DNA from: an uncultured Eubacteriales bacterium
Lineage (GTDB): Bacteria; Bacillota; Clostridia; TANB77; UBA1234
DNA: 64,000 nucleotides
Assembly: GCA_949283575.1 (NCBI GenBank)
Contig: CASDSU010000028.1
Span: forward strand, 128,849 to 192,848
Reading direction: 5' to 3'
Shown here one piece after another: positions 1,070 through 54,596 of this stretch. Every line of letters starts with the position of its first letter. The first letter of the stretch is position 1. The notes under the pieces were generated by a model. That model saw nothing but the letters and a program-made list of their open reading frames with translations. It did not search any database and was not told the origin of the DNA. The translations under genes were made by a program, and so were the position numbers.

Positions 1070-3754
1070 TTATCTATCTCCAAAAGCATCTCCATATGTA
1101 GGCTTAATATCTGCCCTACCTTTTTCTCTAATAAAAGCTTCATATTTATCTTCATATTCAGAAGATATTATAGATGGCATCCTAAGTTGCCATACATTTA
1201 TTTCGTCATTAACTTGATATAAAAAATCTGTATCTATAACAAAATAGTATGGAGAATCACCATCACTAACTCTTATATTATAATTATTATCGTCATGATA
1301 CACCGTAACAAATTCAGATTCGTTAAGCTCATTCTTTAAATCCTTAAATAAACGAACTGAAATATTAGGAGTCTTATCGACATATCCTAAATTTCGTTTA
1401 GCAACATCTCCCCAAAAAATACCGCTATGTCTAAGATCTGAAAACACCTCAAAAGTTTCTGGCTGTCCGTCACCTAAAACACTTCTTTCTTGCAAATCCA
1501 TAAGTTTTACATGAGGTTGCACTTCAATAAAAGAATTAACGTTTCTTCTTAATCCATTACCCATATCTTCACTAGAAGTCACTTCAAATCTAAGAATAGA
1601 TGGTAATATTCTATCATGAACTGGCAATTCTTTTGTCTCTCTATTTAAGCCCAATTTTACAACAAAATCTCCAACCTTAAAAACATCTGAAAAGGCTCCT
1701 GGATTAAGTGTCTTAATATCCCCAATACGAAGTCCTTGCTCATGTAGCAATTCACTCACAATTCTTTCACCATATTTTATTCCCTCATCAGGAATATGAT
1801 GTTCAGCTAAAAAGTTTAATACATAAGATATTCCAAATTTCTCCGAAATTAGACCTTCCTCAACTAGAAGTTCAGCCGTTCTTTTTACACCAGCTTTCGT
1901 CATATCAGTCGCTATATTAGAAAAATCTCTAGCTAAAATCTCATGTGTCTTATCCCATTTATGAAAAAGATCCACAGATTGTTCATTAAGAGCTAAATAC
2001 ATTCCAGGATATTCAAAAGGATCTCTATTATACAAAGTTTCGAATAATCTTTCGCCATAATGTTGCTTTTGCTCCTCGCTAAAATCAGCCTGTTCAAAAG
2101 CCTTGTTAGCCTCAATTAGTGTATGTCCTATTTGCATCGTCGAAAGAGCCAACTCCAAACTAGACCTCACTTTATCTATATTTTCATCTTGATACATCGG
2201 AAAAGCTTGCTCAATCAACTCTTTAGCCAAACAATAATTATGAGCCTGTACAATTTGACCATTTACAGTAAAATATTTAGTAACAGAAGTCAAATCTGCC
2301 AATATATCTAAATCTAAGTCATCATTAACCTCTATATCTTTTACAGAAATAATTACATCAGAATCAGCAAAAGCCTCACTCCACTTACAATATAAATCAT
2401 AAGGAATTCCTTTAAGAATAAGTTCCGGATAATTCATTGATTTCACAAATTCCAACATTTCAATATTCTTAGGATCATCAAAGTCAAAATACCTATCGGC
2501 AGTGATTTTAATACCACTCAAAGCACTGATATCATAATCCATGTTTATATAACCAAGCATTTTAATATTTATAGCATCATCTTTGATTTGAAAATATTCA
2601 GAAATTACCGTCTCAAAGTCAAATAATTTCAGTAATTCCTTTGCTTTATCTTTATCTTTTATAAATTTATGAATCAATGCAATCTTACTTCCATCAATAA
2701 TTGAAGAATACCTAATTATCTCTTCAACAGTTTCTTGCCTACTATCCCTCGGAATATTAGGATCCTTTTCTTTGCTATCTGTTCTAACCCAATAATTCTC
2801 CGTATTATTAAATCTCGCATCAAGATAATCAACCAGCTCTTCATTAGAAAAAATTTCTAATAATCTCTTTTTATACTCATCATTTTTTATTTCAGACATT
2901 AACTTTATTTGAGTATCCAAATCACAATTTCTAAGAATCAAAAATTTAATATTATCTTCAAAGTCACTAAAATTTTGTAACTGTTCCGAAATAGGAAGTG
3001 AGAGTACAAACTCTGGATATTTTCTTTTTTTCACCTCATCCGATCTAATATATTCATTAAATAATCTCTTTTTCAACTCTGGATCTTTCACACCAGTAAT
3101 AACCCTAAACCTTGCTGTATCGCTTGGTATAAGCGAAATTAATTCTTCTTTTTTAGAATCATCTTTGAGACTAAAAATAATATCAGAAATGACAGAAGGA
3201 TGCACATGCCCAGAATAAATATATTCTATTTTCTTTTCATCATCATCTAACGACGCAATAACCTTAGCTTGTTTATGGAAGTCTCTTATTTTAGGCAATA
3301 ACTTAAGTTTATTATCATCACTATTCATTGAACAAATTACGCGCACCTTATCTACTTCTCTTAAAAACCCAGATAAATATTGCATTTTAGTATCATCGTC
3401 AGAAATTGAAATTAGAACATCTGCCTTTTTCGATTGATCGATTACACGTTTCATATATTTTATTCTTAGTTGTTCATCTGGAATTAGTCTAAGCAAACTT
3501 TCACAAGCATTTTTCATCATGAAATTACAGAAAGACTCATATACTTCGGGTCTAACATCATTTTGAAAAACAAATTCCAAATATTTTTCTAAAGCTTCAT
3601 ACAGTGTAGATAAATTAAATTGTCTACGAATTCCGTTAAGCATACTCGTAGACAATCTTGGATATCTAATTATTTCATTATCATCTTGAGCAGAATTTAA
3701 AAGCACAATCTGTTCCCTAAGATCATTGTAATTCACAAACTTTTGACTATTCAT
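1070..3754 (-). CDS. large cytoplasmic protein: N-terminal alpha-helical repeat region plus C-terminal protein-kinase-like domain
   Basis: Start moved to MNSQKF (RBS AGGAGAGG 5 nt upstream). C-terminus has Gly-loop-like GAFSDVFKVG, VVK lysine, catalytic-loop-like GDVAKRNLG (D-x4-N), DFG-like IDTDF. N-terminal half has repeated I.S..DD..K motifs. Confidence 0.6.
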   Translation of the reverse strand: MNSQKFVNYNDLREQIVLLNSAQDDNEIIRYPRLSTSMLNGIRRQFNLSTLYEALEKYLEFVFQNDVRPEVYESFCNFMMKNACESLLRLIPDEQLRIKYMKRVIDQSKKADVLISISDDDTKMQYLSGFLREVDKVRVICSMNSDDNKLKLLPKIRDFHKQAKVIASLDDDEKKIEYIYSGHVHPSVISDIIFSLKDDSKKEELISLIPSDTARFRVITGVKDPELKKRLFNEYIRSDEVKKRKYPEFVLSLPISEQLQNFSDFEDNIKFLILRNCDLDTQIKLMSEIKNDEYKKRLLEIFSNEELVDYLDARFNNTENYWVRTDSKEKDPNIPRDSRQETVEEIIRYSSIIDGSKIALIHKFIKDKDKAKELLKLFDFETVISEYFQIKDDAINIKMLGYINMDYDISALSGIKITADRYFDFDDPKNIEMLEFVKSMNYPELILKGIPYDLYCKWSEAFADSDVIISVKDIEVNDDLDLDILADLTSVTKYFTVNGQIVQAHNYCLAKELIEQAFPMYQDENIDKVRSSLELALSTMQIGHTLIEANKAFEQADFSEEQKQHYGERLFETLYNRDPFEYPGMYLALNEQSVDLFHKWDKTHEILARDFSNIATDMTKAGVKRTAELLVEEGLISEKFGISYVLNFLAEHHIPDEGIKYGERIVSELLHEQGLRIGDIKTLNPGAFSDVFKVGDFVVKLGLNRETKELPVHDRILPSILRFEVTSSEDMGNGLRRNVNSFIEVQPHVKLMDLQERSVLGDGQPETFEVFSDLRHSGIFWGDVAKRNLGYVDKTPNISVRLFKDLKNELNESEFVTVYHDDNNYNIRVSDGDSPYYFVIDTDFLYQVNDEINVWQLRMPSIISSEYEDKYEAFIREKGRADIKPTYGDAFGDR

Positions 3755-4040
3755 AACACCTCTCCTTGTATACACAAAGAAATTTGCATATAAATTTACC
3801 TATTTTCTTTTCTGGCGAAGACAGGTCGACACCCTTTAAAAAAGGAGAAAATTTGGCGCTTTTTTAGCTTTTGTCGACAATTGAAATTTCTCTCAACACT
3901 TATTTTAAACCTGCAAAGTTTAAATATATAAGCTTCTCACACAAAATGGCCACAAATATCTTGCAGTCAAGGACGTCGTCAGAACTATTCAAAGTTCCAA
4001 CCCGTGTGTAGACGTAACTCCCATATTTATTATATCGAAA

Positions 4041-4631
4041 TTATATTTTTTCATCAACTCTGTTTTTTCTGTTTTCAAAAAAATTGTTATTAAAAAATAC
4101 TATCCATCCAGAAACAATAACTTGTACAATTATAAGATAAAATGTAATTTGTTTTAATAACTGATTAGAATATTTCGTAACTTCTTCCGCTTTTGCTGAA
4201 ATTTCTTCAATATTATTAGCCGCATCGCCACTATCAACCATGGTCTCAATAAAACCTTCAAAAAGATAATAAATTTTTTGAATTGAATTATAATCATCGA
4301 CTATTTCTTTTACACAGAATAATGCAATTAATGTAAAAGTTACACACATGATCAAAGTATACTTTATTGCCTTCTTAGAAAGCATTTCATAAGAATCAAC
4401 TTCGTATTTAGTCAAAAACTTAGATATCCCAAATCTATATATAAAAAACACAACTATTACCTGAAAAATCATAAAAATAATTGCAAAAATCAAATTAAAC
4501 TCTGATGTAAAAATTTCGGATAAACTCCCCATATCAACCATTTTAGGTAGCATGAAAACCTTGTTTATAATTGTAAATATCACTCCAATTATTGTCCAAA
4601 CAACAAGGCTTCCACAAACATATATACTCAC
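4041..4631 (-). CDS. hypothetical polytopic membrane protein
   Basis: Several hydrophobic helices; no recognisable motif. Confidence 0.45.
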   Translation of the reverse strand: MSIYVCGSLVVWTIIGVIFTIINKVFMLPKMVDMGSLSEIFTSEFNLIFAIIFMIFQVIVVFFIYRFGISKFLTKYEVDSYEMLSKKAIKYTLIMCVTFTLIALFCVKEIVDDYNSIQKIYYLFEGFIETMVDSGDAANNIEEISAKAEEVTKYSNQLLKQITFYLIIVQVIVSGWIVFFNNNFFENRKNRVDEKI

Positions 4632-4787: not shown

Positions 4788-5585
4788 TTACGAAGCTTTC
4801 AACTCTACCATGTATACACTGTCAAATGACACATAAACAAATCCCGTTTCGACCTGAAACTTAAGCGCGCTAGATACAGACTCCTCTTGAATCCCCGTCA
4901 TTTCCTCTCTATATTTTTGATAAAAGAGAGGCATGACTTGAATCTTTGCAATCGCTTGCTCACGAGAAATCTTATTTGCATCCGCATACCTTCCAACCCA
5001 ATCAATAGGTTCCATCGTAATTTCACCTCTGAGCAGGGCCTGTGCAGCATACTGAGTTGCTCGAGAAGTCACTCGCTGAAAATAGATATCTTGTGTGATA
5101 TTCAGGAACGAAAATGCGCAAGTAACGTACCCCAGCTCACGCAACGTTTTGAGCAACGCACTCCTACTGTTAATGTGAAGCCATCCGCCATCAATCAGAA
5201 GATTTTCACCACTCTCTAGTCTCCTGCCAAACTCTCCAAATCCTAAAGAATTATTTAGAATGTTGGCATCAAAACACCGAATAACATTGGTTGTCAATAG
5301 CTCCTTAGCAGCACACTCATCCAGAGAAAGGAATTCAAACTCCGTATGAGTCTTAAGAAACTCTCTTGCATAAGTACTCTTACCGGTACAAGACTGGCCA
5401 AGAAGCACGATTGCATTCTTCCGTCCCTTGACAGGTTTGTACTCTTTGAGTAGCAACGGTTCCTTGGTTATGCCATCAAAGAAGAGATCGATTCCTTCCA
5501 AAATTGTTATCTGTTTACTCGCTGCCTTATGGTGGTTGGTCATTGCAGTCTCAAAGTTTCGTTCAAACTTGGTCTTCTTGCTCAT
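4788..5585 (-). CDS. P-loop NTPase (kinase-like fold; GQSCTGKST Walker A)
   Basis: Walker A GQSCTGKST. Start placed at MSKKTKFE with RBS GGAGGAG 6 nt upstream. Local GC about 45-48%, clearly above neighbours. Confidence 0.6.
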   Translation of the reverse strand: MSKKTKFERNFETAMTNHHKAASKQITILEGIDLFFDGITKEPLLLKEYKPVKGRKNAIVLLGQSCTGKSTYAREFLKTHTEFEFLSLDECAAKELLTTNVIRCFDANILNNSLGFGEFGRRLESGENLLIDGGWLHINSRSALLKTLRELGYVTCAFSFLNITQDIYFQRVTSRATQYAAQALLRGEITMEPIDWVGRYADANKISREQAIAKIQVMPLFYQKYREEMTGIQEESVSSALKFQVETGFVYVSFDSVYMVELKAS

Positions 5586-5746
5586 GGTTTTCTCCTCCAT
5601 TTTCGAGAGATTATTTGTTGAAAATTCAGACACACTTAATCATTGTATCACGAGTTAACATAAAATTCAATCTTTTTTATCACTTACTCCTAATTAAAGC
5701 CTAAAATTCAAAAGTTTATATTCAATAAAAAAGATTATTTTTCATA

Positions 5747-5794: not shown

Positions 5795-5872
5795 GGTGGA
5801 TGTAGCTCAGTTGGTTAGAGCGCCAGGTTGTGGCCCTGGAGGTCGTGGGTTCGAGTCCCATCTTTCACCCCA
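5795..5872 (+). tRNA. tRNA-His (anticodon GTG) with G-1 and encoded CCA
   Basis: Hand-folded cloverleaf: G-1:C73, D-arm GCTC/GAGC, anticodon stem CCAGG/CCTGG, loop TTGTGGC, T-arm GTGGG-TTCGAGT-CCCAT, CCA at 5870-5872; one U-U mismatch in the acceptor stem. Confidence 0.85.
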
Positions 5873-5908
5873 CTTTTATAACTAACAAAAATGCAATAAA
5901 TTAAATAT

Positions 5909-5984
5909 TGGGCTGTAGCCAAGCGGTAAGGCACCAGACTTTGACTCTGGCATTTCGGCGGTTCGAATCCTCCCAGCCCAGCCA
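5909..5984 (+). tRNA. tRNA-Gln (anticodon TTG)
   Basis: Acceptor TGGGCTG/CAGCCCA, D-loop AGCGGTAA, anticodon stem CCAGA/TCTGG with loop CTTTGAC, T-loop GGTTCGAATCC, CCA encoded. Confidence 0.85.
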
Positions 5985-6042
5985 AATTTCATGATTTTTA
6001 AGAGAATTTTAGAAAACTTGTAAGAAACTTAAAAGTCATCAA

Positions 6043-6080
6043 ACCCAGCATTCGAGCTTATTTGGATGCTGGGTATTTTT
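6043..6080 (+). terminator. rho-independent terminator after the tRNA operon
   Basis: CCCAGCAT...ATGCTGGG stem followed by TATTTTTAT. Confidence 0.6.
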
Positions 6081-6181
6081 ATTCTCAGATTTTTTGAAGT
6101 TCTGAAAAGTATCGATTTCAAGTTACAAATTTAAGTTTCAGAAAAATTAGGTTCCAAAAGACTTTTAGGAAAGGAGAAAAA

Positions 6182-6742
6182 ATGGAAGCTAATTTCTATA
6201 AAATTAACGAATCCTTAGAAAATTCATTTTATCAAATCCCAGAAGAATTATTCAAAAACCCTATATATAAAGAAAAATTAGGCTTAGAAGCTAAAGTTTT
6301 ATATGCCTTTTTACTAAGCAGAATGCGATTATCTGCTCAGAATAATTGGATTGATGATGATGGGTATATCTATCTTATCTACAAACGTGTCGATGTTCAA
6401 AAGAAACTTAATCTATCAGATAAGACAGTTACAAAGGCATTCAAACAACTAAAAGAAGTCAAGTTAATACACGAAATAATCCAAGGAATTAATAAGCCTA
6501 ATATTATCTATTTAGCCAAAATAAAACACATGGATATGCCACAGAACTGGACTCGTAAAAATTACGAGCCCGGACACGGAAAAAATACGACTCCGAAGTC
6601 GGAAAATTTACGACCAATATATATAAATAAAGATAAAGAAAATAGATATAATATGCAAACTTCAAAATTTGACAATAGGTTTAGAGATAACAAAGGACAG
6701 TATGATGATTTAGATAAATATATTGAAAATTTTAAAGATTAA
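6182..6742 (+). CDS. replication initiator protein A, N-terminal domain family (RepA_N)
   Basis: LGLEAKVLYAFLLSRMRLS...W.DDDGYIYL motif typical of Firmicutes plasmid/ICE RepA_N; RBS GGAAAGGAG. Confidence 0.7.
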   Translation: MEANFYKINESLENSFYQIPEELFKNPIYKEKLGLEAKVLYAFLLSRMRLSAQNNWIDDDGYIYLIYKRVDVQKKLNLSDKTVTKAFKQLKEVKLIHEIIQGINKPNIIYLAKIKHMDMPQNWTRKNYEPGHGKNTTPKSENLRPIYINKDKENRYNMQTSKFDNRFRDNKGQYDDLDKYIENFKD

Positions 6743-6766
6743 TAAATAAAAAGGAGATGTCTTAAA

Positions 6767-7120
6767 ATGAAATTAGAATACTTAAAAAACGGAGATTATT
6801 ATATACCGAATATAGAATTAGGTTATGAAAATGTAAAGGTGAATTTAGGCAAATATGGAAGGCTAAGAGAAAAATATTTGAGAGAGCATAAACCTTCTTT
6901 ATTTGAGCATTTAAAGATGAGTGAAAGATTAATTCCTCATCTATCAAGTATAGATAAAGAAGCTAAAGCTTATGAAGCATTATTAATAAAACAATTTACT
7001 GAAAAGGAAAATGTTAATGAGAAATTGAAAGTAACAAATCAACTTGGGTGGGTAAAAAATATGAATTCAATTAAGCAAAGAGCCCAAGAAATTGTGTGCA
7101 ATGAAATGATTTATAATTAA
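6767..7120 (+). CDS. TnpV-like transposon-encoded protein
   Basis: KLEYLKNGDYYIP...G.YG.LR..YL..HKP...HL..ID..A...LKV.NQLGWVKNMN.I..RA.EIV resembles TnpV of Tn4451-type elements. Confidence 0.65.
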   Translation: MKLEYLKNGDYYIPNIELGYENVKVNLGKYGRLREKYLREHKPSLFEHLKMSERLIPHLSSIDKEAKAYEALLIKQFTEKENVNEKLKVTNQLGWVKNMNSIKQRAQEIVCNEMIYN

Positions 7121-7150
7121 AAATTCAACTATAGAAAAGAGGATGATTTT

Positions 7151-7474
7151 ATGCAAGAAAAAGGCTTATATGATTTAAGATTATGTGATTTCAATGAACT
7201 AATAAGTGAGGTAAAAGTAGCACTTAGAAACAAAAATAAAGAATATAAAAAGTTGCAAGACAAGTTAGAAAATATTATGGACAATCATCCAAATTTACAG
7301 ATGATTATGGAAGATGATACCGAGTTTAATTTAACAAAAACAGATTGTAAAATGCTTCAGAAATTATTTGAATTACATATAGAAATTCAAGCTTTGGAAG
7401 AACAAGAAATATTTTTCTTAGGTGGCAGAGAAGCTTACTATTATTTCAAAAATATTGGAATTTTAAAAGAATAA
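7151..7474 (+). CDS. hypothetical small helical protein of the mobilization module
   Basis: ORF with RBS AAGAGGATGA; position conserved between TnpV and MobC. Confidence 0.45.
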   Translation: MQEKGLYDLRLCDFNELISEVKVALRNKNKEYKKLQDKLENIMDNHPNLQMIMEDDTEFNLTKTDCKMLQKLFELHIEIQALEEQEIFFLGGREAYYYFKNIGILKE

Positions 7475-7479
7475 TTTAG

Positions 7480-7600
7480 AAGAAAATGCGGGTAAAAGCA
7501 GTGTTTCAAATGCGTTGAAAAATAAAAAGCAAGCAACGCATTTGTACTCCCGCACAAATACACTTGCATAGCTTTAGAATTAAAGCTATGTGATGGGAGA
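7480..7600 (+). promoter_or_regulatory. candidate origin of transfer (oriT) upstream of mobC
   Basis: Inverted repeats CAAATGCGTTG(7507-7517)/CAACGCATTTG(7534-7544), GCGGG/CCCGC arms, and palindrome TAGCTTTAGAATTAAAGCTA(7570-7589), directly upstream of MobC-relaxase. Confidence 0.4.
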
Positions 7601-7647
7601 ACCCAAGCCCCTTTTAATAAAAATTGTAAATGAAAGGAGTTAAAAAT

Positions 7648-7971
7648 ATGAGAAGAAGATCGATTAAAAAACAACTTTGGCTTAGTCAAACTGAAAATAA
7701 AATTTTGAAAGAAAAATCTAAAGTTACAGGACTAAATGAGTCCGAATTAATTCGTAGTTTTATAAAAGGTTATCGCATAAAAGAACAACCAACTGAAGAA
7801 ATAAAACAATTTCAAAAAGAGCTTTCTGGAATAGCAAATAATATAAATCAAATAGCAAAAATAGCAAACACATATCAGTTTGTAAAGCTAGATGATTTTA
7901 AATATATATCATCAAAACTTGCAGATTTTATTTTAAGATTTGAGAAGAAAATTTATTCAAGAGAGAAGTGA
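7648..7971 (+). CDS. mobC: MobC-family relaxosome accessory protein (ribbon-helix-helix)
   Basis: SELIRSFIKGY and GIANNINQIAK motifs; RBS AAAGGAG before ATG at 7648. Confidence 0.7.
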   Translation: MRRRSIKKQLWLSQTENKILKEKSKVTGLNESELIRSFIKGYRIKEQPTEEIKQFQKELSGIANNINQIAKIANTYQFVKLDDFKYISSKLADFILRFEKKIYSREK

Positions 7972-7977
7972 TTTAAA

Positions 7978-9276
7978 ATGGCTGTTATAAAAATTAAAAC
8001 TATAAAAAATAATTTAGAAGCCGTAGTAAACTATGCTCAAAATGGAGATAAAACCGAGAATGAAATATTAGTAACTGGAGTTAATTGTGTGCCACAAACT
8101 GCATATAGTCAAATGGCACTAACAAAGAAATTTTTTCATAAAGAAAGTGGTAGACAGGGTTATCATATTATTCAATCTTTTAATGGAAAAGAAGTTTCTC
8201 CAAACGAAGCCAATGAGCTTGGAACATTACTTGCAGAAGAATTATTTGGAGATAAATTTCAAGCTATAGTTTGTACTCATATAAACAAAGATAATATACA
8301 TAATCACATCGTTTTGAATTCTGTTTCATTTGTTGATGGAAGTAAACATCATAATTCAAAACTTGACATAGCATTAATAAAAGATAAGTCAGATGAGCTA
8401 TGCAAAGAGTATGAATTATCGGTAATCCAAACCTCAAAAGCAAGCAAAACCAATAAGACATATAAAAAAAGAATTTCAAAATACAATAGAAGTAATTCAA
8501 AGATGCTACAAGTGAAAGCTGACATTGATGATGCAATTGCTCAAAGTAGAAAAATGAGTGAATTTTATGATAATTTAAAAATCAAAGGTTATGAAACTTA
8601 CAAAAGAGGTATGTATCTTTCAGTAAAATTACCTTACTTTGCAAGGAATATTCGACTAGAAAGAGCTTTTGGAGAAGAATACTCACTTCATAACATTCAA
8701 GATAAAATTTATTATAGCGAAAAAACCGAAAATCAGAAAAATGGAATTAATAAGAAATATTATAGGAAAGTATATAAAGGACCTAAAATAGATAGCTTTA
8801 AGCTTAAATTTAGCCCATTTTATAGGTCATATGTTAGATGGCTTTACAAACTTGGAAAGTTACCACCTAAGATAGAATACGAAGAATTAACACCAGAATA
8901 TTTTAAGCAAAAAAGAGAAACACAAAATATTCTTGATGAAATTAGTTTTGTGGCTAGAAATAATATCAATAACATTCAAGATGTTCAAAATTGCGAAGAA
9001 TGGATTTCGGTTAAATTAACTAAAGTTAAAGGAGAGCGAGAAAATTTGTGGAGACAGTATAATAAGGCTAAATTACCAGAGAATAAAATTGAAATAAAAA
9101 TGAAAATTGATAGTAAAACTTGTGAAATTAATGCTTATAGCAATGAGCTAAAGATTTGTAGAAGGTTTATGTGGAGACGAGAAATACTTGGGAAAGAAAT
9201 AAGATTATTAAGAATTGAATTAGCAGAAAGTAAAAGAATAGTAAAAATGAAGAATTTATCACGTGAAAAATATTAA
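7978..9276 (+). CDS. MobA/VirD2-family relaxase (mobilization nuclease)
   Basis: N-terminal relaxase fold with HxxxDxxHxH metal motif (HINKDNIHNHIVLN), conserved Tyr region near the N-terminus, C-terminal coiled-coil. Confidence 0.8.
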   Translation: MAVIKIKTIKNNLEAVVNYAQNGDKTENEILVTGVNCVPQTAYSQMALTKKFFHKESGRQGYHIIQSFNGKEVSPNEANELGTLLAEELFGDKFQAIVCTHINKDNIHNHIVLNSVSFVDGSKHHNSKLDIALIKDKSDELCKEYELSVIQTSKASKTNKTYKKRISKYNRSNSKMLQVKADIDDAIAQSRKMSEFYDNLKIKGYETYKRGMYLSVKLPYFARNIRLERAFGEEYSLHNIQDKIYYSEKTENQKNGINKKYYRKVYKGPKIDSFKLKFSPFYRSYVRWLYKLGKLPPKIEYEELTPEYFKQKRETQNILDEISFVARNNINNIQDVQNCEEWISVKLTKVKGERENLWRQYNKAKLPENKIEIKMKIDSKTCEINAYSNELKICRRFMWRREILGKEIRLLRIELAESKRIVKMKNLSREKY

Positions 9277-9420
9277 ATATACAATTATAAATGAGACAAC
9301 AGAATCACGAAAAGATAGACTCATATTAAAAATATAATTTCAATAATTCTAAATACAGATTTGAAATAAAATGGTATTTATTTTATAATTCTGTTATAGA
9401 TAAATTGAGGAGGAAATATT

Positions 9421-9807
9421 ATGGATGAAAAATTTAATCAAGTGAAAAAATTAAATAAGATATCTAAAATTTTAACATTTATCATTGCAGGAGTATGGAT
9501 AATTGGTGGAATAATTGTATTTCAATTATATACTCTTTCTGATTTACAAATGGCATTTAAGGTTATAATAGATTTAATTATAAATAGTTTTAAAGGAAAA
9601 TTAAGTTTAGACGTCATATTAATTGCTTTAATGATAATAGATTTTATTGTTCTTTGTATTCAAACAAATAAATTAAAAGCTAATTGGAAAAAATTTATGA
9701 TAATTGAGTTGATAGTTAAAACATTAGTCTTATTTTACGTGGTAGGAGGATATATTTTATCTTTTTGGTATATGAATAGTTTTGTATTTGATGCATATGG
9801 AATATAA
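9421..9807 (+). CDS. small membrane protein (3-4 TM)
   Basis: RBS GAGGAGGAAA; hydrophobic helices. Confidence 0.5.
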   Translation: MDEKFNQVKKLNKISKILTFIIAGVWIIGGIIVFQLYTLSDLQMAFKVIIDLIINSFKGKLSLDVILIALMIIDFIVLCIQTNKLKANWKKFMIIELIVKTLVLFYVVGGYILSFWYMNSFVFDAYGI

Positions 9808-9859
9808 AATAAAAGGATACTTTCTTACTTGCACCAATTGTGCGAGTAAGAGTGATAAA

Positions 9860-9882
9860 GGTGCGACAAAAAATGTCGCACC
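9860..9882. repeat. perfect hairpin GGTGCGACA-AAAAA-TGTCGCACC; member of a local repeat family (other copies at about 12680-12705 and 13320-13345)
   Basis: 9-bp stem with A5 loop, preceded by ACCAATTGTGCGAGTA; a similar unit ACCAATGGTGCGAGTA plus GTACGACATTTTTCGTCGCAC lies at 12668-12705. Confidence 0.55.
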
Positions 9883-9927
9883 TTTGTCTTGCATCAACAG
9901 CACACTTTTTACATATTTTTTATCGGT

Positions 9928-10164
9928 TCACTTGTTCGGTTCTAGTATATTCCAATAACCTTTTCTATCAGAACCTATTCTTTCAATAATGTGTGTTTCT
10001 TTAAGTTTGCGTATATGATTTGTTATTGTACTTTTTCTAAATCCTGTTATTTCACATATTTCAACTTGTGTAATTTGAGGATTTTGATTCATTAGCTTAA
10101 TGATTTGAGAATCTATAATTTCTGTCTCTTTCTTCTGTCCATTTCTATTCACTTTCCAACACAT
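9928..10164 (-). pseudogene. orphan C-terminal winged-helix fragment, homologous to the HTH tail of the AlbA_2/HATPase_c_4 regulator at 13408..14871
   Basis: 78-aa ORF aligns to the C-terminus of the 487-aa protein (ILQFLADRDGAKNSEIANFIERSPSTTRKILAELKNKNII vs IIKLMNQNPQITQVEICEITGFRKSTITNHIRKLKETHII). It has no N-terminal domains and abuts the relaxase relic. Confidence 0.5.
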
Positions 10165-10180
10165 CTAAAATAGGTTGAAA

Positions 10181-10245
10181 ATAATGCTTATAGCAATGAG
10201 CTGAATATTTGTAGAAGGTTTATGTGGAGAAGAGAAATACTAAAA
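10181..10245 (+). repeat. relic of a second relaxase gene 3' end (about 63 bp, roughly 93% identical to 9128..9190)
   Basis: AATGCTTATAGCAATGAGCT[G]AA[T]ATTTGTAGAAGGTTTATGTGGAGA[A]GAGAAATACT matches the last codons of the relaxase at 7978..9276. Confidence 0.65.
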
Positions 10246-10396
10246 AAGAAACAAATATATTAAAAACACAAGAAATTTCTAAAGTCATTTTTAAAAGGAA
10301 AAAAGAAAAAGTACGATAATTATAAAAATGGCAAAGAAATTAAATCTCTGCCATTTCTTTATAACGAACTATTTTCACTCCTACTGATAATATTAA

Positions 10397-11533
10397 TTAC
10401 ATATTTTCAAAAAACAATTCATAAGTATTATCTGATTCATTTAAAAATTTTAATTCTACACACGAAAAATCCAACTCTTTTGGTATTTCAAAAACAACAT
10501 AAAATTGAGTAAGGTCTCCTTCGCAGTATTGCTTCTTTATTTCTCTTGGGATTATTGTTGCTCTAGTACTTCCTTCCAAAGCATTTTTTAAATCATAGGC
10601 TGAAACTGTAACTTCTGGTTTTACAGCAGAAAATGTTGATGTTGAATTAAACGGGAAATCTATATCAGTTAAATCTACATCAAATAATGCACAATACAAA
10701 TTTTTATTTTCATTTATTGTGTATTTAGGGAACAAACTTGTACCGCCATATCCTTCTGCAAAAGCTATATTATATTTACCAGCTTTTTCAAAAGCATTAT
10801 TATAATCTTCGATAATTTCAATAGCTGTGTTGCCACTATATATTTCTTTCATTTTTAAATGTAATGAACTCATTGAAATTTTATTATTTCCATTTTCATC
10901 AAGTCCAGTACCTGAGTGAAGATTAACAGTACCAGCTTGTCCTTTTAGGGCTGGTGTATCTGTATGAACCTTTGCTAAGGAAGCAAAACTTTCTTTTGGC
11001 AATTCTGGAATTTGAGTACTTGGTGTTATTCCTCTATACGTATCATCAAGTATTACAGAATTTGTGTTTCCATCCCATTTGATTTCTATATCAAACAAAT
11101 TTGAGATTGCACGTACAGGCAAATATGTAGTTCCTTGATAAGAAAGAGGATATACTACATTTTCGTTTACATCTTTAAAAGTTTGATACATTCCATCGTA
11201 TGAAACTCTTATTTTGTCATTTAATAGAACTTGAATATTTTCTGTAGGTTCAGCAATAAAATTTTCAATTGATTGCGCTGAAATTTTGTCTAATTCGCCT
11301 TCACCTAATTCTACAGCATTCAATTTTTGATTCCAATTAATTCTAATATTAAATATGCTAGAAATTGATCTTATTGGAAGATATGTAGTTCCTTCATAAG
11401 ATATAGGATAAACCTTCTGTCCACTTACATTTTTAAATTCTTGAATTTCATTATTATACAATATTTTCAATCCTTTGTTTAAAACTACATTAACATCTTG
11501 ACTTGCATATACGCAATTAGAGCAGAAAAACAT
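10397..11533 (-). CDS. secreted protein with two copper-amine-oxidase N-terminal-like (stalk) domains; probable true start upstream, disrupted by a T8 homopolymer
   Basis: Two repeats of Y.GTTYLP.R.IS..F...I.W. Removing one T from the run at 11553-11560 gives MKRIFLVISILAMFFCSNCVYA signal peptide in frame. Confidence 0.65.
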   Translation of the reverse strand: MFFCSNCVYASQDVNVVLNKGLKILYNNEIQEFKNVSGQKVYPISYEGTTYLPIRSISSIFNIRINWNQKLNAVELGEGELDKISAQSIENFIAEPTENIQVLLNDKIRVSYDGMYQTFKDVNENVVYPLSYQGTTYLPVRAISNLFDIEIKWDGNTNSVILDDTYRGITPSTQIPELPKESFASLAKVHTDTPALKGQAGTVNLHSGTGLDENGNNKISMSSLHLKMKEIYSGNTAIEIIEDYNNAFEKAGKYNIAFAEGYGGTSLFPKYTINENKNLYCALFDVDLTDIDFPFNSTSTFSAVKPEVTVSAYDLKNALEGSTRATIIPREIKKQYCEGDLTQFYVVFEIPKELDFSCVELKFLNESDNTYELFFENM

Positions 11534-11641
11534 TGCAAGTATCGAAATTACTAAAAAAAATTCTTTTCATATTTCATACCTCTTTTCTTTCGATTTGTTA
11601 ATTATATTATATCATTTTTAACTGTTACATTATAGAAAATT

Positions 11642-12508
11642 TTATTGTTTTAAGAATTCTTTACAAGCTTGATAAGAATATGTTACAAGATTTGCTAAAG
11701 ATTTATAATTCATTTCATAAAATGGTTTAACAAATTCGGTACTAATCTCTTTGCTGTTGTATGTTATAGATAAATGAGAGTATTTCTTAATAATTTTATC
11801 TAATTCTTCTTTTGATTTTAACTCATTTTCGTTAATTATAAATTTGCAATAAATTTTATATGTTGTTACTGGTGTACGTCGTATTTTTTTAGATACAATC
11901 TTAAATTCGAAGTAATTTCCATTACTATCTTTATAACCATTTTTATTTTCTAATTCTGAAATTTGTTTTCTTAAATTTCCAATAGCAAATTCTTCATCTG
12001 GAATAAATTTTTTTGAAGATTTTTTCTGTGTTTTTAATATATCCACTTGATTTTTCAGTTTTTTAATTTCTTCTCTTTTATTAAGACATTCGGTCAACTG
12101 ATATCTTTCAAATAAATATTCATCTAAATTATAATACCAAATACTTTTATAATAATCTGAAATTACAACTGTTGCTATGCCAACTCCGCAAGCAATTGGA
12201 AGTATAACTGCAATAATTATACTTAATACATTATTAATAGTTATTAAATTTATTATAAATGATATTAAAGATATAAATATAATTCCGAATACACCTAAAA
12301 ACACTTTGACTCTAGTTTCTTTTTTATTCTTTTCTTTCAATTTCTTGTATTCTTCATCTGAAATCTGTGTTATTTCCTTTATATCTTTATATCTTTTTCT
12401 GTAATCAATTCTTTTACCTATATCTAATCCTAATCCACTTCTAATCTCACTTGTTATTAATAAACCTATAAATATTATTATTAAATATATTATTGTTTTT
12501 AAGTTCAT
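11642..12508 (-). CDS. membrane protein with coiled-coil region (hypothetical)
   Basis: N-terminal TM, second TM pair, K/E-rich helix; RBS present. Confidence 0.5.
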   Translation of the reverse strand: MNLKTIIYLIIIFIGLLITSEIRSGLGLDIGKRIDYRKRYKDIKEITQISDEEYKKLKEKNKKETRVKVFLGVFGIIFISLISFIINLITINNVLSIIIAVILPIACGVGIATVVISDYYKSIWYYNLDEYLFERYQLTECLNKREEIKKLKNQVDILKTQKKSSKKFIPDEEFAIGNLRKQISELENKNGYKDSNGNYFEFKIVSKKIRRTPVTTYKIYCKFIINENELKSKEELDKIIKKYSHLSITYNSKEISTEFVKPFYEMNYKSLANLVTYSYQACKEFLKQ

Positions 12509-12724
12509 TTTTAAACTCCTTTATTTAAACTTCGTCAATCACTAATATATATTCTAAAATTATGTTATTTTCCATATAGCAACCATCCATTTTCGGCCGA
12601 GGTACATTTTTTAGTAATTATATGAGATATCTTGCAGTACAATTATTTATATATATTTCTCGTACCAATGGTGCGAGTATTGTACGACATTTTTCGTCGC
12701 ACATTTTATGAAATTATCTATGCA

Positions 12725-13333
12725 TTAACTTGATTTTAAACAATCTAATAATTCCATCCAACTTCTTTTGTCACATTCAAAACCATAATCTTCCGCATTT
12801 TCGAGTTCGAATATCATTTTTTCTTTTATCTCATTGGTTATTACCTCAACATTAGCAATAATAAAACTAAGAATTACACCTGTTATATATGTTTTTCTTC
12901 CTAAACCGTATTTTATTGCTTCTAGCATTAATAGTTCCAATTCATTGTTCGTAATGTTGATATCTATAACACCATCAAATTGTTTATCTTCAAATGATTG
13001 TTGCAGAGCTTTTTCTATCTTATTAGCAAAAGTAAGCCACTTCTCTTCATTATCTAAAGGTCCATAGAGTGGACTTGCGTTTCTTTCTTTGATATCTCTA
13101 ATAAAAATCATTTTCATTTTTTCTGACATATAATCAAGATTATCTATAACTATTTTCTGAAAAGTATCTAATTCAATATATTTAGCAGTATCTCTTAATT
13201 CGTTTCTTAATACACTAGCTAAAATTAATTCAAAATATAAATTTTTATTATTTATTTTCATAAAATCACCACTTTCTTGATTTATTATCTGTGAAATTTC
13301 CTGTGAAGTTATCTGTGCAGAATAATGCGACAA
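12725..13333 (-). CDS. hypothetical protein
   Basis: ORF with plausible internal start MKINNKN; no recognisable domain. Confidence 0.45.
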   Translation of the reverse strand: MSHYSAQITSQEISQIINQESGDFMKINNKNLYFELILASVLRNELRDTAKYIELDTFQKIVIDNLDYMSEKMKMIFIRDIKERNASPLYGPLDNEEKWLTFANKIEKALQQSFEDKQFDGVIDINITNNELELLMLEAIKYGLGRKTYITGVILSFIIANVEVITNEIKEKMIFELENAEDYGFECDKRSWMELLDCLKSS

Positions 13334-13344
13334 AAGTGCGACAT

Positions 13345-13413
13345 TACTCGCTCACTACTCGCTTTTACTCGCTCATTACTTGTTTCTACTCGCTCATTAC
13401 TCGCTTATTACAT
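13345..13413. repeat. tandem array of about 6.5 copies of a 10-11 bp unit TACTCGCT(C/T)(A/T)(C/T), helical-phase periodicity
   Basis: tactcgctcac|tactcgcttt|tactcgctcat|tacttgtttc|tactcgctcat|tactcgcttat|tacattc. Unit is the reverse complement of the GTGCGAGTA/GAGCGAGTA motif found at 9848 and 12676. Confidence 0.75.
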
Positions 13414-14871
13414 TCTTATTTTATATTTTCCTTTTGGGTCATTTTGAGATATTCCGTTCCAATAAATTATATTTTTATTTTTTAATTCAGCTAAAATTTT
13501 TCTTGTTGTAGAAGGGCTTCTTTCAATAAAATTTGCGATTTCTGAGTTTTTGGCACCGTCTCTATCTGCTAAAAATTGTAAAATTTTTCTTTCTGTTTCA
13601 TTGAAATTGTTCCAATTATCACTTATTGCACTATTCTTCTTTAAATCATCTTCTTGTCTTGCGTTTCTAGATAAATAATTATTTTTTAAAGTCAAAATAA
13701 ATATATCACTACTTGTTACTTTAAATTCGGGTTCTTCTAAAAAATATTTTTTCATTTCTCTATAAATTCTTGGTATTCCTTCGCTTAGTTCTCTTACAAC
13801 ACCAAATTCAGTTAAAGTTCTGGCTATAACACGATTTCTAGAGTATCTTTCTGTTTGTAAATTCTCTAAAGTTACTAATCCAGCAAGTTTTCCAGGACTT
13901 CTAATTTCCATTCTGTTGTTATAAATAAAAATCTTTATATATTCTCCACCCATTACATAATTTCTATGTGTAACAGCATTTGTAACACCTTCAACATAAG
14001 TGAATTCAGGGTATTCAGGTATAGTTTCAAATTCCCCTTCTGAATTTAAGTGTGTAGAATCTCTTAACTGTGTATGAACAAATTCTGGAACTTCCTTTAT
14101 TGCTTTATATAGTGGCAAGGCAAAAGTTTTATCTTTAATAATATTTAAATCTTTTCCGGGTAACATTTCATTTCCATCAAATTTTACAATTCTAATTCTG
14201 GCTGTAGGCAAATAAATTGATGGATCTTGAGCAAATAATAGTACGCCTGCTTTAGTTAATAATTTTTGTCCATTCACAATACTTTCTCTTAAAAAACCTC
14301 TAGCTCTTAAGACTTCTTCATCAGATTTATCTTCAGCGTCTATTTTTTGTTTATATATGCTTAAAACTTCCTTATCTATTATATCAATTGTAGCATAAGG
14401 AACCAACTCATCTTCAAATGAAACATCGGGTCTATCCATTTTCAATACTTGGATTTGCTCATCTGTTAATTTGATAGTTGAGTCACCTCGTCTTAAATAC
14501 ACTTCATCTTTTTGATTTCTAATTAATTTATTTAAACTAATCGCAATATGAAGTAACAAAACAGTATCATCTTCATTTTTTACATTTACTACGCTTAATT
14601 CTTCATATTTGATTTCTGGTTCTGCATTTAAATATTGAACACTTTTTCTAAATTGATTTAACTTATCTGGACAACTATTAAATCCAACAATCTCTCCATT
14701 GTTAGAAATTCCTACAGCAAGTATTCCTCCATCTGCATTTGCCATACCTGCAATATGATTTGCAAGGTCTAGTTCACTTATACTTGAACTTTTTCTATCA
14801 AAATTTTGATTTTCTCTGTTATTACATAAATATTCTAATGTAATAGCAGGATTTATTTTAGATGAAATCAT
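13408..14871 (-). CDS. AlbA_2 (Schlafen-like) / HATPase_c_4 / winged-helix putative ATP-binding regulator (RecG-C-terminal-like family)
   Basis: Architecture typical of the 'putative DNA-binding / ATP-dependent DNA helicase RecG C-terminal' family; C-terminal wHTH; operonic with the upstream gene (14-nt gap). Confidence 0.6.
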   Translation of the reverse strand: MISSKINPAITLEYLCNNRENQNFDRKSSSISELDLANHIAGMANADGGILAVGISNNGEIVGFNSCPDKLNQFRKSVQYLNAEPEIKYEELSVVNVKNEDDTVLLLHIAISLNKLIRNQKDEVYLRRGDSTIKLTDEQIQVLKMDRPDVSFEDELVPYATIDIIDKEVLSIYKQKIDAEDKSDEEVLRARGFLRESIVNGQKLLTKAGVLLFAQDPSIYLPTARIRIVKFDGNEMLPGKDLNIIKDKTFALPLYKAIKEVPEFVHTQLRDSTHLNSEGEFETIPEYPEFTYVEGVTNAVTHRNYVMGGEYIKIFIYNNRMEIRSPGKLAGLVTLENLQTERYSRNRVIARTLTEFGVVRELSEGIPRIYREMKKYFLEEPEFKVTSSDIFILTLKNNYLSRNARQEDDLKKNSAISDNWNNFNETERKILQFLADRDGAKNSEIANFIERSPSTTRKILAELKNKNIIYWNGISQNDPKGKYKIRM

Positions 14872-14885
14872 AAGTTACCTCCTAA

Positions 14886-15815
14886 TCACTTATTTTTTCT
14901 TTTTCTAGTATTAGCTATATTAGCCTTATTTCTACATGTTGTTGTATCATATTCAGCTTTTAAATTTTCAGCTATAAATGGTTTTCCACAATATTTACAT
15001 AGCCTAACTTCTGTTCTGCCATTTGTTTCGTTTAATAATAACATTGCATTAATTGCAGCTCTCAACGAATGAAAATTCCACTGAAATTTTATTTTTCCAT
15101 TTTCTATACCATATTTAAAATTAATTTTATATACTTCTTGGTTAAGTATCGTTTCGGCATAAAATTCTTTTAAATCAGGTTCTAAGTTACCATATAAATA
15201 AGTACCAATTACTCCTTTAGTGACATATACGCTTTCAGCAAAATCTATAATTTCAGATATTGGCTCTGCATAATTCTTTGAAAAAATAAAATCATTTAAA
15301 CGGTCACCTTCAACTTGTATAAGATTAGCGTCTAAACCAGAATTTCGGTGCAAATCATTAACTGTCATTTTTTTAGACCAATCAATCTTTTTATCAGGCC
15401 AAAAATATCTTTGCTCAAAATCTATTATTGATAATGAACTATCTAATTTTGAAGAATATGAGATTTCATTATCTTTCTCTAAAAAGTCAAAATTTTTAGG
15501 AAAATATCTAAAATTGCCTAACAACCCATATTTTGATACAAAATCTAACACAACTTTTTGAAATTCTTTTGTTTTACTCTTTGCTTCATAAGTTAAATTA
15601 GTATTGGTAAATTTTATAGTTTCATCTCCATTTACCATTTCGCCTATAATCATTAAATCCTTTAAAATATCATTTTTAATTTCAAAAGGGTCATAGGTAA
15701 TAGGCACTGCGTTTTCATCAGGTAAAACATAAAGAATATTATTATTTTTTTCAATTTTATATTTACTATACTTACACCATTTTGACATAAATTCGATTTT
15801 TTCTTCTTTTATCAT
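14886..15815 (-). CDS. hypothetical protein with C-terminal zinc-ribbon-like motif (CKYCGKPF...C) and basic tail
   Basis: ORF with RBS; CxxC...C at C-terminus followed by RKRKNK; no known domain recognised. Confidence 0.5.
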   Translation of the reverse strand: MIKEEKIEFMSKWCKYSKYKIEKNNNILYVLPDENAVPITYDPFEIKNDILKDLMIIGEMVNGDETIKFTNTNLTYEAKSKTKEFQKVVLDFVSKYGLLGNFRYFPKNFDFLEKDNEISYSSKLDSSLSIIDFEQRYFWPDKKIDWSKKMTVNDLHRNSGLDANLIQVEGDRLNDFIFSKNYAEPISEIIDFAESVYVTKGVIGTYLYGNLEPDLKEFYAETILNQEVYKINFKYGIENGKIKFQWNFHSLRAAINAMLLLNETNGRTEVRLCKYCGKPFIAENLKAEYDTTTCRNKANIANTRKRKNK

Positions 15816-16018
15816 TTCATCACCTCAAAAAAATTCATAAAAACACAAGAAAAATCTTGACTTATTTCGAATGATAATATATATTTGAAATAAGTTAGAA
15901 ACTATAATATTTCTAACACATTATAGTTTGTTTCTAAGATATATTTAAATTATATATCAAAAGTATTACAAAGTCAAATATATCTAAAGTAAAAAATGAT
16001 GAAAGGAGGGATGAACAC

Positions 16019-16222
16019 ATGAGAGATAAAGCTTTAGAATCAAAACCAATGCCAGTACTGTACTCAACAGATGATGTATGCAAAATGTTTCATATCAGTA
16101 GGCTTACTTGTCTAAACCTATTTCGCAGAAATGACTTTCCAGCTCAAAAGTTTGGACGAGCCTACAAAGTGGAAGCAAATGCACTAAATGAATATCTTAG
16201 CAAAAGACATATCTTGGCATAA
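16019..16222 (+). CDS. xis: excisionase-family DNA-binding protein (Xis, MerR-like HTH)
   Basis: 67 aa, small basic HTH protein immediately upstream of the integrase; RBS AAAGGAGGGATG. Confidence 0.65.
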   Translation: MRDKALESKPMPVLYSTDDVCKMFHISRLTCLNLFRRNDFPAQKFGRAYKVEANALNEYLSKRHILA

Positions 16223-16362
16223 AAAGAAAGAAGACTTAGAAAATGGCGTTTCTAAATCTTCAACACGAACCAGGGAATGTCCCAAGCTCTAACCTATGAG
16301 AAGATTATAACACAATAAAGTAATAGTTTTCAAGACATTCCCTTAAATTTTAAGAGGGATCT

Positions 16363-17778: not shown

Positions 17779-18381
17779 AAGTCAAACTAAATATTTCTGG
17801 AACTTAAGTTCCAAATAAGCATAAAATGCGAAAGACTTGAAATGATTTACGTGTTTTTACAAAAAAAGATTGGTGGTGAAATCACGTGATTACAATGCGA
17901 AAAAGCATAACAAATTTAAGAGATAGCAAAAAAGAGTTTATTTTAGATTGTAAGATTAGAAATCTAAATGTAGAAACAGACGCATTTACAATTCATCTAT
18001 TGCCTGATGATAAAATGAGACCGTTTTCTAATAAATACTAAATATAAAAAAGGACAAGAGCCCGGAAGAAGACTCATTGTCCTTTGCTATTTCTTAAAAA
18101 TTCTCTTGTGATTATATTGCAATTTTCTTAAATTTAAACCCAATCGCATTTTTTCCTTATTTGTAAGATTAAAAGCGTTGCTAATATATCCTTTTTAATC
18201 TCCACATTATAATCATCTAAATTTCTTGCTTTTTTCATCTATTTCCAAAAATACAAAAAATACATTGTAATAAATAACAAACTATATTTTATTACATTTT
18301 CTAGCATTAACTTTATTTCTTTTTTTAAATATTTTTTAAACTTTCTTTTAAATACGGTGTCATCCTCAATTTAAATCATCT

Positions 18382-18684
18382 CTACATATAATCCTTCGTT
18401 CCTTGTATAACCCTCTTCATAAAATTCATATACAAAACTGCTTCTTCCCTTTTTTCATACCCATCAAAAACATCAATCAAACATTCTTTTATCGAATCCA
18501 TTTCTTCTTTAAAATATTCTAACTCAGGAAGCTCTCTAATCATCTTTTCAAGCGAACTTGCAAACTCCAATTCATTTTCTGTTACCATTAACTCATAAAC
18601 TTCCTTAATAGTCTTCTCAATCATACTAACTTCTGTTTTCATTTTCATTATTTTTGGAACCAGCGTATTCGTATTTAATTTCAT
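18382..18684 (-). CDS. small helical acidic protein, partner of the upstream multi-AAA gene
   Basis: 100 aa; RBS AGGAGGAG; 12-nt gap to upstream gene. Confidence 0.5.
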   Translation of the reverse strand: MKLNTNTLVPKIMKMKTEVSMIEKTIKEVYELMVTENELEFASSLEKMIRELPELEYFKEEMDSIKECLIDVFDGYEKREEAVLYMNFMKRVIQGTKDYM

Positions 18685-42761: not shown

Positions 42762-42840
42762 ATTATTCTCCTTCCTTTTAATCTTCAATATATTATATTT
42801 TTTCCAAACTTTTATAAAAATATATCACAAAAAAGCATAA

Positions 42841-43224
42841 AAAAAAAGCTTGCAAGAACTGCAAGCTTCATCTCCAAATTCCCTTTCGGAATTGCCACGC
42901 GTTAGGCCGCGTGGCCAGCCTCTCGCAACTCCCCTTCTACCAAGGTCCCCCGAAGGGGACCTCGGCAGAAGAGAGAGAAGCAAGAAGCAAATCAAACAAA
43001 TATTATTTTATTTTGTATATACATTTTTTGTTTTCAAACAATATTTGTTTGATTTTTGGAGATTCTTCGTATGCTGATCTGCAGCTCAACATACGAAGAT
43101 TGAATTCAGCGCTGAATTATTTCTTGATCCGACATTACTGTCATTTCAAGAAATGGTCGATTTGGTTAACGTTGTGACTAGCCCTAACTCACATTTCTGT
43201 GAGGATTGACTACCTTACCAGTCG
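42841..43224 (-). other. GC-rich, hairpin-dense 3' region of the acidic-protein gene, ending in a terminator (hairpin 42846-42868 plus U7 on the minus strand)
   Basis: Six stem-loops: AAGCTTGC/GCAAGCTT, CCACGCG/CGCGTGG, GGTCCCC-CGAA-GGGGACC, TCAAACAA/TTGTTTGA, CTTCGTATG/CATACGAAG, AATTCAGC/GCTGAATT. Confidence 0.4.
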
Positions 43225-54575: not shown

Positions 54576-54596
54576 ATTGCCTACCTCCCTTCTAGT

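Follow-up and report, generated by a model that had tools for sequence, protein, structure and literature searches.

A minimal, atypical kinase-like domain joined to a helical-repeat solenoid, and a candidate leader RNA, in an uncultured Eubacteriales bacterium

We analysed a 64,000-nucleotide stretch of DNA from an uncultured Eubacteriales bacterium (contig CASDSU010000028.1; the whole stretch is called the window below) and, within it, a single-copy gene for an 894-amino-acid (aa) protein on the minus strand. An earlier note, made from the sequence, had described a repeat protein of about 895 aa at this place, with a C-terminal eukaryotic-like kinase fold and a possible part in signalling or defence. 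The reading frame was borne out, and the kinase-like fold and the register of its motifs are established as far as computation allows. The C-terminal domain is a minimal, atypical member of the superfamily called protein-kinase-like (PKL), and it is called kinase-like here, instead of a canonical Hanks kinase, because it has neither the alphaC Glu nor an activation segment. On balance we lean towards the reading that the protein is a cytoplasmic enzyme of four parts (an alpha-solenoid, an alpha/beta domain, a helical bundle and the C-terminal PKL domain), probably active and controlled through a structured 5' leader RNA. Coordinates of all features are collected in Table 1.

The four motifs on which the kinase proposal had been built (Gly-rich loop, VVK lysine, D-x4-N catalytic loop and a DFG-like IDTDF) were all found in the translation, in the correct order and at the expected relative positions, within the last ~210 residues. 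Three protein alignments were used: A1, of ten full-length homologs; A2, which is A1 cut to residues 520-894; and A3, of 42 sequences of the kinase-like domain. An AlphaFold2 model of residues 520-894 (mean predicted local distance difference test score, pLDDT, 81; predicted template modelling score 0.79) has the bilobal kinase fold of the PKL superfamily. Foldseek comparison of the domain model with the PDB returned kinase-fold proteins only, namely PINK1, AceK, GSK3beta, RIO2, TkArkI and APH(2''); both of the structure-comparison methods employed gave kinases and nothing else, with RIO1, RIO2 and TkArkI in both lists. The A3 profile, searched against PDB sequences, matched casein kinase 2 alpha (CK2alpha) with an E-value (E) of 0.0035, the sole significant sequence match, and laid GxGxYSxV on GRGKYSEV, VLK on VIK, IEV on the hinge FEF/V and WtDvkxxN on HRDVKPHN. 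Alignment of A3 by hhalign to a manually entered human CK2alpha sequence gave the same register (E 8.7e-5, probability 60%). In the protein studied here, G686-x-F-S-x-V and V-V-K700 align to GRGKYSEV and V-I-K of CK2alpha, which are Hanks subdomains I and II, and D783 and N788 align to D-V-K-P-H-N, the D-x4-N of subdomain VIb, the HR dipeptide being W-G/T in this family. D841 lies beyond the point where the CK2 sequence alignments end, after the hydrophobic strand V-I-I-D-T-D-F.

Conservation across the family follows the same pattern. In an alignment of 116 relatives, D783, N788 and D841 were kept in every sequence (116/116), K700 in 115/116, G686, E744 and G790 in 114/116 each, and D843 in 112/116. 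K700, E744, D783, N788, D841 and D843 are thus 97-100% conserved, and the invariant and near-invariant columns are exactly those expected for catalysis. Many family members carry a D-V-K-P-E-N loop that reads like HRDLKPEN. Structure comparison, the family profile and hhalign alignments to CK2alpha, and the family-wide conservation of catalytic residues all support the kinase fold that had been proposed. We looked for the two outcomes that would have spoken against it, a non-kinase fold and motifs out of line with the Hanks subdomains, and found neither. It could be argued that the motifs are a chance resemblance in some other fold, given that the query taken alone has no significant kinase match in Pfam, NCBIfam or PDB sequences. 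With kinases as the only return of two structure-comparison methods, three motifs placed in register by both the profile and hhalign, and the motif residues forming invariant columns of the 116-sequence alignment, we regard such a coincidence as extremely improbable.

The domain nevertheless departs from a canonical Hanks kinase. W-G/T-D stands in place of HRD, and D-T-D-F, with a second invariant Asp, in place of DFG. The catalytic loop and DTDF are separated by an insert of ~45 residues with one helix, and the C-lobe is reduced to ~100 residues. Past DTDF there are ~35 residues and one helix, and the domain therefore lacks an activation segment, APE and helices alphaG-I; the family consensus holds no APE-like conserved motif. 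Additional invariant residues (R705, R715, R722, R775 and D843) have no canonical role. The kinase profile search that the earlier note had suggested as a check gave no Pfam Pkinase match for either the full protein or the isolated domain. The query did not reach the gathering score of PF00069, and one of 42 relatives obtained E 0.0024, still below threshold. The Pfam families RIO, Kdo, APH and ABC1 gave no match for the query, and 1 of the 42 members matched ABC1 at E 0.079. What remains of the atypical kinase architecture described at the outset is therefore a minimal kinase-like domain; a canonical Hanks kinase it is not, as Pfam fails and the alphaC Glu and activation segment are missing.

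Several points weigh against the reading that we favour. Whole-protein scans of Pfam, NCBIfam and PADLOC and a PDB sequence search returned nothing meaningful. The alphaC Glu of CK2 aligns to H713, a position occupied by H, D, N or S across the family, so that the Glu of subdomain III is absent; at the place of alphaC lies a conserved segment with prolines, R-x-T-x-x-I-P-N-H-R-R-I-L-Q-P-L-x-R, which is coil in the model. The activation segment and APE of subdomain VIII are missing, as are helices alphaF-alphaI. Lack of the alphaC Glu and of an activation segment is shared by PKL enzymes with small-molecule or RNA substrates or with other chemistry. D841 is assigned as the putative DFG Asp by pattern and topology, the sequence alignments reaching no further than the catalytic loop. 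When AlphaFold was given the whole protein, the kinase domain came out poorly (pLDDT <50), which leaves the domain-only run as the basis for the fold. The favoured substrate class is drawn from likeness to kinases, and control of translation by the leader is something we infer from complementarity that suggests it.

Loss of the alphaC Glu, taken together with the invariant R705, R715, R722, R775 and D843, would fit a pseudokinase, or a kinase fold that performs another reaction (AMPylation as in SelO, glutamylation as in SidJ), with the protein serving mainly as a scaffold. Non-catalytic scaffolds are reported for other bacterial PKL families in a preprint (bioRxiv 10.64898/2026.09.18.752743). 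However, K700, D783, N788 and D841, all of which are needed for phosphotransfer, are 99-100% conserved, and pseudokinases usually lose at least one of them; we therefore rate this alternative as distinctly improbable. Because the Lys/Asp/Asn/Asp set is kept to this degree, the C-terminal domain is probably catalytically active.

Under the four-part enzyme reading, the PKL domain would be an ATP-dependent phosphotransferase, most likely acting on protein Ser/Thr. A protein substrate is favoured because the nearest matches in both sequence and structure are Ser/Thr kinases; a small molecule or RNA is a possible substrate. The solenoid and middle domains would form a docking platform that chooses the substrate or partner, and, as there is no activation segment, expression and partner binding would determine how active the enzyme is, in place of activation-loop phosphorylation. 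An alternative is that the kinase-like domain acts on something other than protein, be it a small molecule, a lipid, a sugar or RNA, with the N-terminal domains binding this substrate or a carrier. The minimal PKL enzymes RIO, Bud32, KdoK, APH and the archaeal tRNA kinase ArkI are models for such an activity. RIO1/RIO2, Bud32 and ArkI resemble the present domain in their size of ~200-220 residues, the lack of an activation loop and the Lys/Asp/Asn/Asp set, and differ from it in that no sequence match was obtained, that the RIO N-terminal helix and winged helix-turn-helix (wHTH) are missing here, and that this domain is fused to a 670-residue N-terminal region. We consider a non-protein substrate unlikely, as the best matches are eukaryotic-type Ser/Thr protein kinases, with CK2alpha as the one significant sequence match, many members carry the Ser/Thr-kinase-like D-V-K-P-E-N loop, and no metabolic or tRNA-modification gene is conserved beside the gene.

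Compared with Hanks Ser/Thr kinases (CK2alpha, PINK1 and PIM1; PF00069), the domain has in common the bilobal fold, the CK2-type GxGxYSxV, VxK, the hinge Glu and D-x4-N; D841, which follows a hydrophobic strand, is putatively the metal-binding Asp on grounds of pattern and topology. It differs in W-x-D for HRD, DTDF for DFG, a His/Pro coil for alphaC, and no APE. The effector kinases OspG, NleH and HopBF1 are likewise grouped with minimal or atypical PKL kinases. Helical-repeat platforms joined to kinase-fold domains are known from PIKK kinases, LRRK2 and PknG with its TPR domain, where the repeats recruit substrates or regulators. The likeness of the present protein to these is one of analogy, as the sequences are unrelated and both the repeat types and the kinase subfamilies are different.

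The extent of the family was determined with a hidden Markov model built from A2 in an exhaustive search of 1.84 billion cluster representatives. At E<=1e-3 this search recovered 593 proteins, and at E<=1e-10 still 350, so that the family counts at least 593 clusters (clustered at 50% identity), all of them from uncultured gut Clostridia. Nearly all of the 593 match profile positions ~145-360 alone, equivalent to residues ~665-880 of the query, and the wider domain family consists mostly of proteins of 380-500 aa with unrelated helical N-termini. Full-length relatives are rare: 11 were found in 5.8 billion clusters, at 43-99% identity, in addition to the more distant P0013-P0016, of which P0016 is an ortholog at the same locus with 29% identity. 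A scan of GTDB genomes with A1 gave two species representatives only, a Clostridia metagenome-assembled genome (MAG) from roe deer cecum and an uncultured Eubacteriales MAG, and the sole organism labels in the wider family are '[Clostridia bacterium]'. No family member passes a Pfam threshold, every annotated member is named 'hypothetical protein', and no description of the family was found in the literature searched. For the short members we considered a toxin of the type VII secretion system/LXG kind on account of a weakly WXG100-like gene near one of them (locus L007), yet ten members held no LXG or other domain and their contexts differ, and the idea was rejected.

The six-frame ORF list contains one long minus-strand open reading frame (ORF) running from a GTG at 3775 to 1070, which would yield 901 aa if the GTG were used. 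The biological start is almost certainly the ATG at 3754, as judged from sequence comparison, because every ortholog begins at the aligned Met and an invariant Shine-Dalgarno (SD) sequence, AAGGAGAG, lies just ahead of it. The absence of a transmembrane (TM) segment or signal peptide that had been noted earlier agrees with the hydropathy of the full protein: the maximal 19-residue Kyte-Doolittle value was 0.85, located in kinase beta-strands, and the N-terminus is polar, no dedicated TM or signal predictor having been applied. A soluble, cytoplasmic protein is the best explanation of this profile.

The full-length AlphaFold model was confident for residues 1-650 (pLDDT mostly 85-93). At residues ~85-315 it places helices every 13 residues, which is two per 26-residue repeat. 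The earlier note had taken all 650 residues ahead of the kinase as helical repeats; its I.S..DD..K units are real, and they are confined to residues 81-314, with an alpha/beta domain following. The solenoid resembles the PBS-lyase HEAT-like proteins (CpcE/F), the leucine-rich repeat variant (1lrv) and HEAT and PPR solenoids in structure only, as no repeat family was matched by the full protein at E<=1 among Pfam HEAT, HEAT_PBS, TPR and PPR. Outside this protein group, the 26-residue I-x-S-L/I-x-D-D-x-x-K unit has so far been seen in P0012 alone (an 828-aa protein; locus L013, 4906-7392, from another metagenome), where it precedes a Pfam Amidoligase_2 domain and an HD-domain gene adjoins; a word-index homolog search with residues 85-330 returned one fragment. 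The presence of the module on Amidoligase_2 in P0012 suggests that it is an exchangeable docking module. Between solenoid and middle domain lies a linker motif of the pattern NYWVRTDSxExxxNxPRDxR, modelled with pLDDT <50 at residues 318-335 and not kept in the 29% ortholog P0016. This linker could be a docking or (auto)phosphorylation segment. The middle region matches no family and ranks with the protein's most variable stretches: distant orthologs are 35-41% identical there, a level close to that of residues 521-672. The last helices of the helical bundle are the only part of it common to the wider family, in which profile matches mostly begin at position ~125-145.

We then examined the gene neighbourhood. 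At every ortholog locus, down to 29% identity, the gene lies next to and convergent with the same adh_short gene, which is followed by a CBM53-VanW gene and, in most orthologs, by SPL, MscL and CysRS beyond it. All orthologs occupy this one fixed locus, which means that the gene belongs to the chromosome and has been passed on vertically within a clade of gut Clostridia. The adh_short protein is 85% and 80% identical where the kinase-like protein is 44% and 29% identical, and the divergence is even over all protein domains. Divergence so much faster than that of the neighbour suggests that the partner or substrate is specific to the lineage and adapts rapidly. The upstream side is a variable, tRNA-linked region. 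In the window, a 196-aa membrane protein gene, an AAA_33 gene, tRNA-His with tRNA-Gln, and an integrative mobilisable element of ~12 kb succeed one another upstream; in distant orthologs the promoter comes straight after tRNA genes. The ortholog loci have no conserved partner gene in common, and AAA_33 and the 196-aa TM protein were rejected as obligatory partners as they are missing in distant orthologs. A plasmid origin was likewise rejected, there being no plasmid match except a tRNA fragment. Contigs of orthologs break ~400 bp upstream of the gene; a repeat element was dismissed as the cause, at least one break falling in a tRNA gene (L004 starts inside one).

These features bear on a role in conflict or defence, as an anti-phage sensor-effector or an inter-bacterial effector in which the solenoid would recognise an invader or target and the kinase would be the effector. 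The rapid divergence relative to the housekeeping neighbour may leave room for such a role. It would also accord with the position at the edge of a tRNA-linked variable region (a mobilisable element in the window, other genes in locus L001), with the recombination of the repeat module with Amidoligase_2 in P0012, with the P-loop AAA_33 kinase gene upstream in close orthologs, and with the placement of one short family member at a core/variable junction, three short members having been found among housekeeping genes. The defence suggestion of the earlier note nevertheless received no direct support. PADLOC-DB 2.0 gave nothing for the protein or its TM neighbour, and for AAA_33 only noise-level P-loop matches (E ~0.006). 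The gene lies outside the mobile element, and its place in the chromosome has stayed the same while identity fell to 29%; it is accompanied by no conserved partner, immunity or secretion gene, AAA_33 being absent from distant orthologs; the protein has no signal peptide or known secretion domain; and defence genes do not usually carry a conserved structured leader. For these reasons we think a conflict role doubtful and retain the leader-controlled cytoplasmic enzyme as the favoured explanation.

The gene stands by itself, with a predicted promoter of its own and a structured leader of ~265 nucleotides (nt). At the promoter position the orthologs read TTTACA-17-TATAAT. The ~270 nt 5' of the start codon show much stronger conservation than the protein and are kept even where the latter is 29% identical. 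RNAalifold predicted five helices from nine sequences. Standard pairs fill 98.7% of the cells of the paired columns, and 11 of 26 pairs are changed on both sides; when the registers were slid by 1-3 columns, 0-1 double-change pairs remained, and none of 500 shuffles reached the observed covariation. Helix 3, for instance, is GUCGAC/GUCGAC, GUCAAC/GUUGAC or GCCAAC/GUUGGC, and GUUGAG/CUCAAC in the 29% ortholog. The G-U pairs point to the gene's sense strand as the one that folds. An invariant anti-SD-like sequence, UUUUCUCCUUUUU (the UCUCCUU element), pairs locally with AAGGG in helix 4 and is also complementary to the SD sequence. This double complementarity suggests translational gating, in which alternative pairing of UCUCCUU with the upstream-proximal AAGGG or with the SD would switch access to the start.

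The leader stands upstream of the orthologs in L001, L003-L006, L019, L033-L035 and L037, including a human-gut contig. Rfam gave no gathering-score match in the window or in three ortholog loci, and in E-value mode only chance-level ones (E 2.6-9.7). A strict leader pattern had 0 matches in the metagenome contig collection; a looser one had 19, of which one was real (another ortholog, at L019) and 18 were without flanking leader elements. The leader was not seen at the loci of short family members or as a second copy in the window, and was found only upstream of orthologs of this gene. Translational riboswitches and leaders of Firmicutes are similar in having long, multi-helix, covarying leaders with an anti-SD-like element and an SD-mimic, whereas the leader described here has no Rfam family and precedes the orthologs of one gene only. 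On comparative grounds it is a candidate new cis-regulatory RNA.

Table 1. Coordinates of features in the window, counted from its first letter
Feature	Positions (nt)	Strand	Residues, basis or remarks
Coding sequence, 894-aa helical-repeat and kinase-like protein	1070..3754	minus	stop 1070-1072, start ATG 3752-3754
Alpha-solenoid, nine tandem 26-residue two-helix repeats (I.S..DD..K units)	2813..3514	minus	residues 81-314
Linker motif TENYWVRTDSKEKDPNIPRDSR, predicted disordered	2738..2803	minus	residues 318-339; many invariant columns among 43-81% orthologs
Middle region: helices (340-395) and alpha/beta domain (~395-520)	2195..2737	minus	residues 340-520; AlphaFold pLDDT 85-92
Helical bundle abutting kinase-like domain	1739..2194	minus	residues 521-672; model helices H5-H153, pLDDT ~85-93
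Minimal protein-kinase-like domain	1115..1738	minus	residues 673-880
Gly-rich loop GAFSDVFKVG	1670-1699	minus	residues 686-695
VVK (beta3 Lys K700)	1655-1663	minus	residues 698-700
Hinge Glu E744			within residues 673-880
Catalytic loop WGDVAKRNLG (D783, N788)	1385-1414	minus	residues 781-790
IDTDF (putative metal-binding D841 in DTDF)	1223-1237	minus	residues 840-844
Sigma-70-type promoter TTGATG-17-TATAAT	4029..4057	minus	consensus scan, 10/12 matches
Structured 5' leader RNA, ~265 nt	3755..4022	minus	alignments A4-A6, RNAalifold
Covarying leader helix	4006-4010/3938-3942	minus	
Covarying leader helix	3928-3933/3898-3903	minus	
Covarying leader helix	3872-3878/3825-3831	minus	helix 3
Covarying leader helix	3842-3846/3832-3836	minus	
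Covarying leader helix	3822-3824/3812-3814	minus	
Shine-Dalgarno AAGGAGAG	3760-3767	minus	invariant in orthologs
196-aa predicted membrane protein, no family	4041-4631	minus	in window alone, between AAA_33 and gene
AAA_33 P-loop kinase, weak polynucleotide-kinase similarity	4788-5633	minus	window and >=79% orthologs only
Mobile element: RepA_N	6182-6742		
Mobile element: NikA/MobC	7630-7971		
Mobile element: MobA/VirD2 relaxase	7978-9276		
Mobile element: Schlafen AlbA_2/HATPase_c_4/wHTH protein	13408-14871		
Mobile element: tyrosine integrase	16363-17778		

Other parts of the window also yielded observations. The integrative mobilisable element extends over ~5985-17800, adjoins tRNA-His/tRNA-Gln (5796-5984) and is missing from the orthologous locus L001; a direct-repeat search found no att repeats for it. 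Inside this element, just past the stop codon of the Schlafen-like gene, a 21-nt unit, TTACTCGCTCAYTACTCGCTT, forms a tandem array of 3-4 copies at 13344-13417. Beyond it, a 1298-aa protein (18697-22593, minus strand) has three tandem AAA+ modules with AAA_lid_6 and is followed by a small conserved 100-aa ORF (18382-18684); L001 and L019 have this pair too, beyond the tRNA-linked variable region. From 51324 to 63271, on the minus strand, three successive large ORFs (1083, 1866 and 1024 aa) gave nothing in Pfam at E<=1e-5. The GC content at 42000-46000 is 0.42-0.48 in a window of ~30%, and long overlapping ORFs occur there (43225-45396, minus; 43375-45531, plus), the one on the minus strand lacking any Pfam match; rRNA was ruled out by Rfam as the cause of the high GC.

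Kinase-fold enzymes are central regulators and frequent effectors. The PKL superfamily, to which the domain belongs, is already known; the present family, its N-lobe variant, the fusion to a 26-residue solenoid and the leader RNA appear to be new with respect to Pfam 2025, NCBIfam, PADLOC, Rfam 15, the PDB and the literature searched. Uncurated branches of the kinase superfamily are still being reported, as in a preprint (bioRxiv 10.64898/2026.09.18.752743). The analysis defines a Clostridia family of at least 593 clusters in which the catalytic residues are kept, the N-lobe is rebuilt and the activation segment is dropped. A bolder and rather doubtful proposal is that the leader would be a new class of ligand- or protein-sensing RNA for solenoid-linked minimal kinases, or that the solenoid, in the manner of PPR or PUF proteins, would bind its own leader; either way the ~600-cluster family would be a new, Clostridia-specific kinase branch in which an Arg-rich, Pro-containing segment replaces alphaC. 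If true, a bacterial protein kinase would be under the control of a structured RNA switch, or the solenoid would autoregulate the protein through its own leader. The fixed locus, the very fast evolution of the protein and the better-conserved leader therefore make this gene a tractable entry to a regulatory or conflict pathway and to a candidate cis-regulatory RNA in these organisms.

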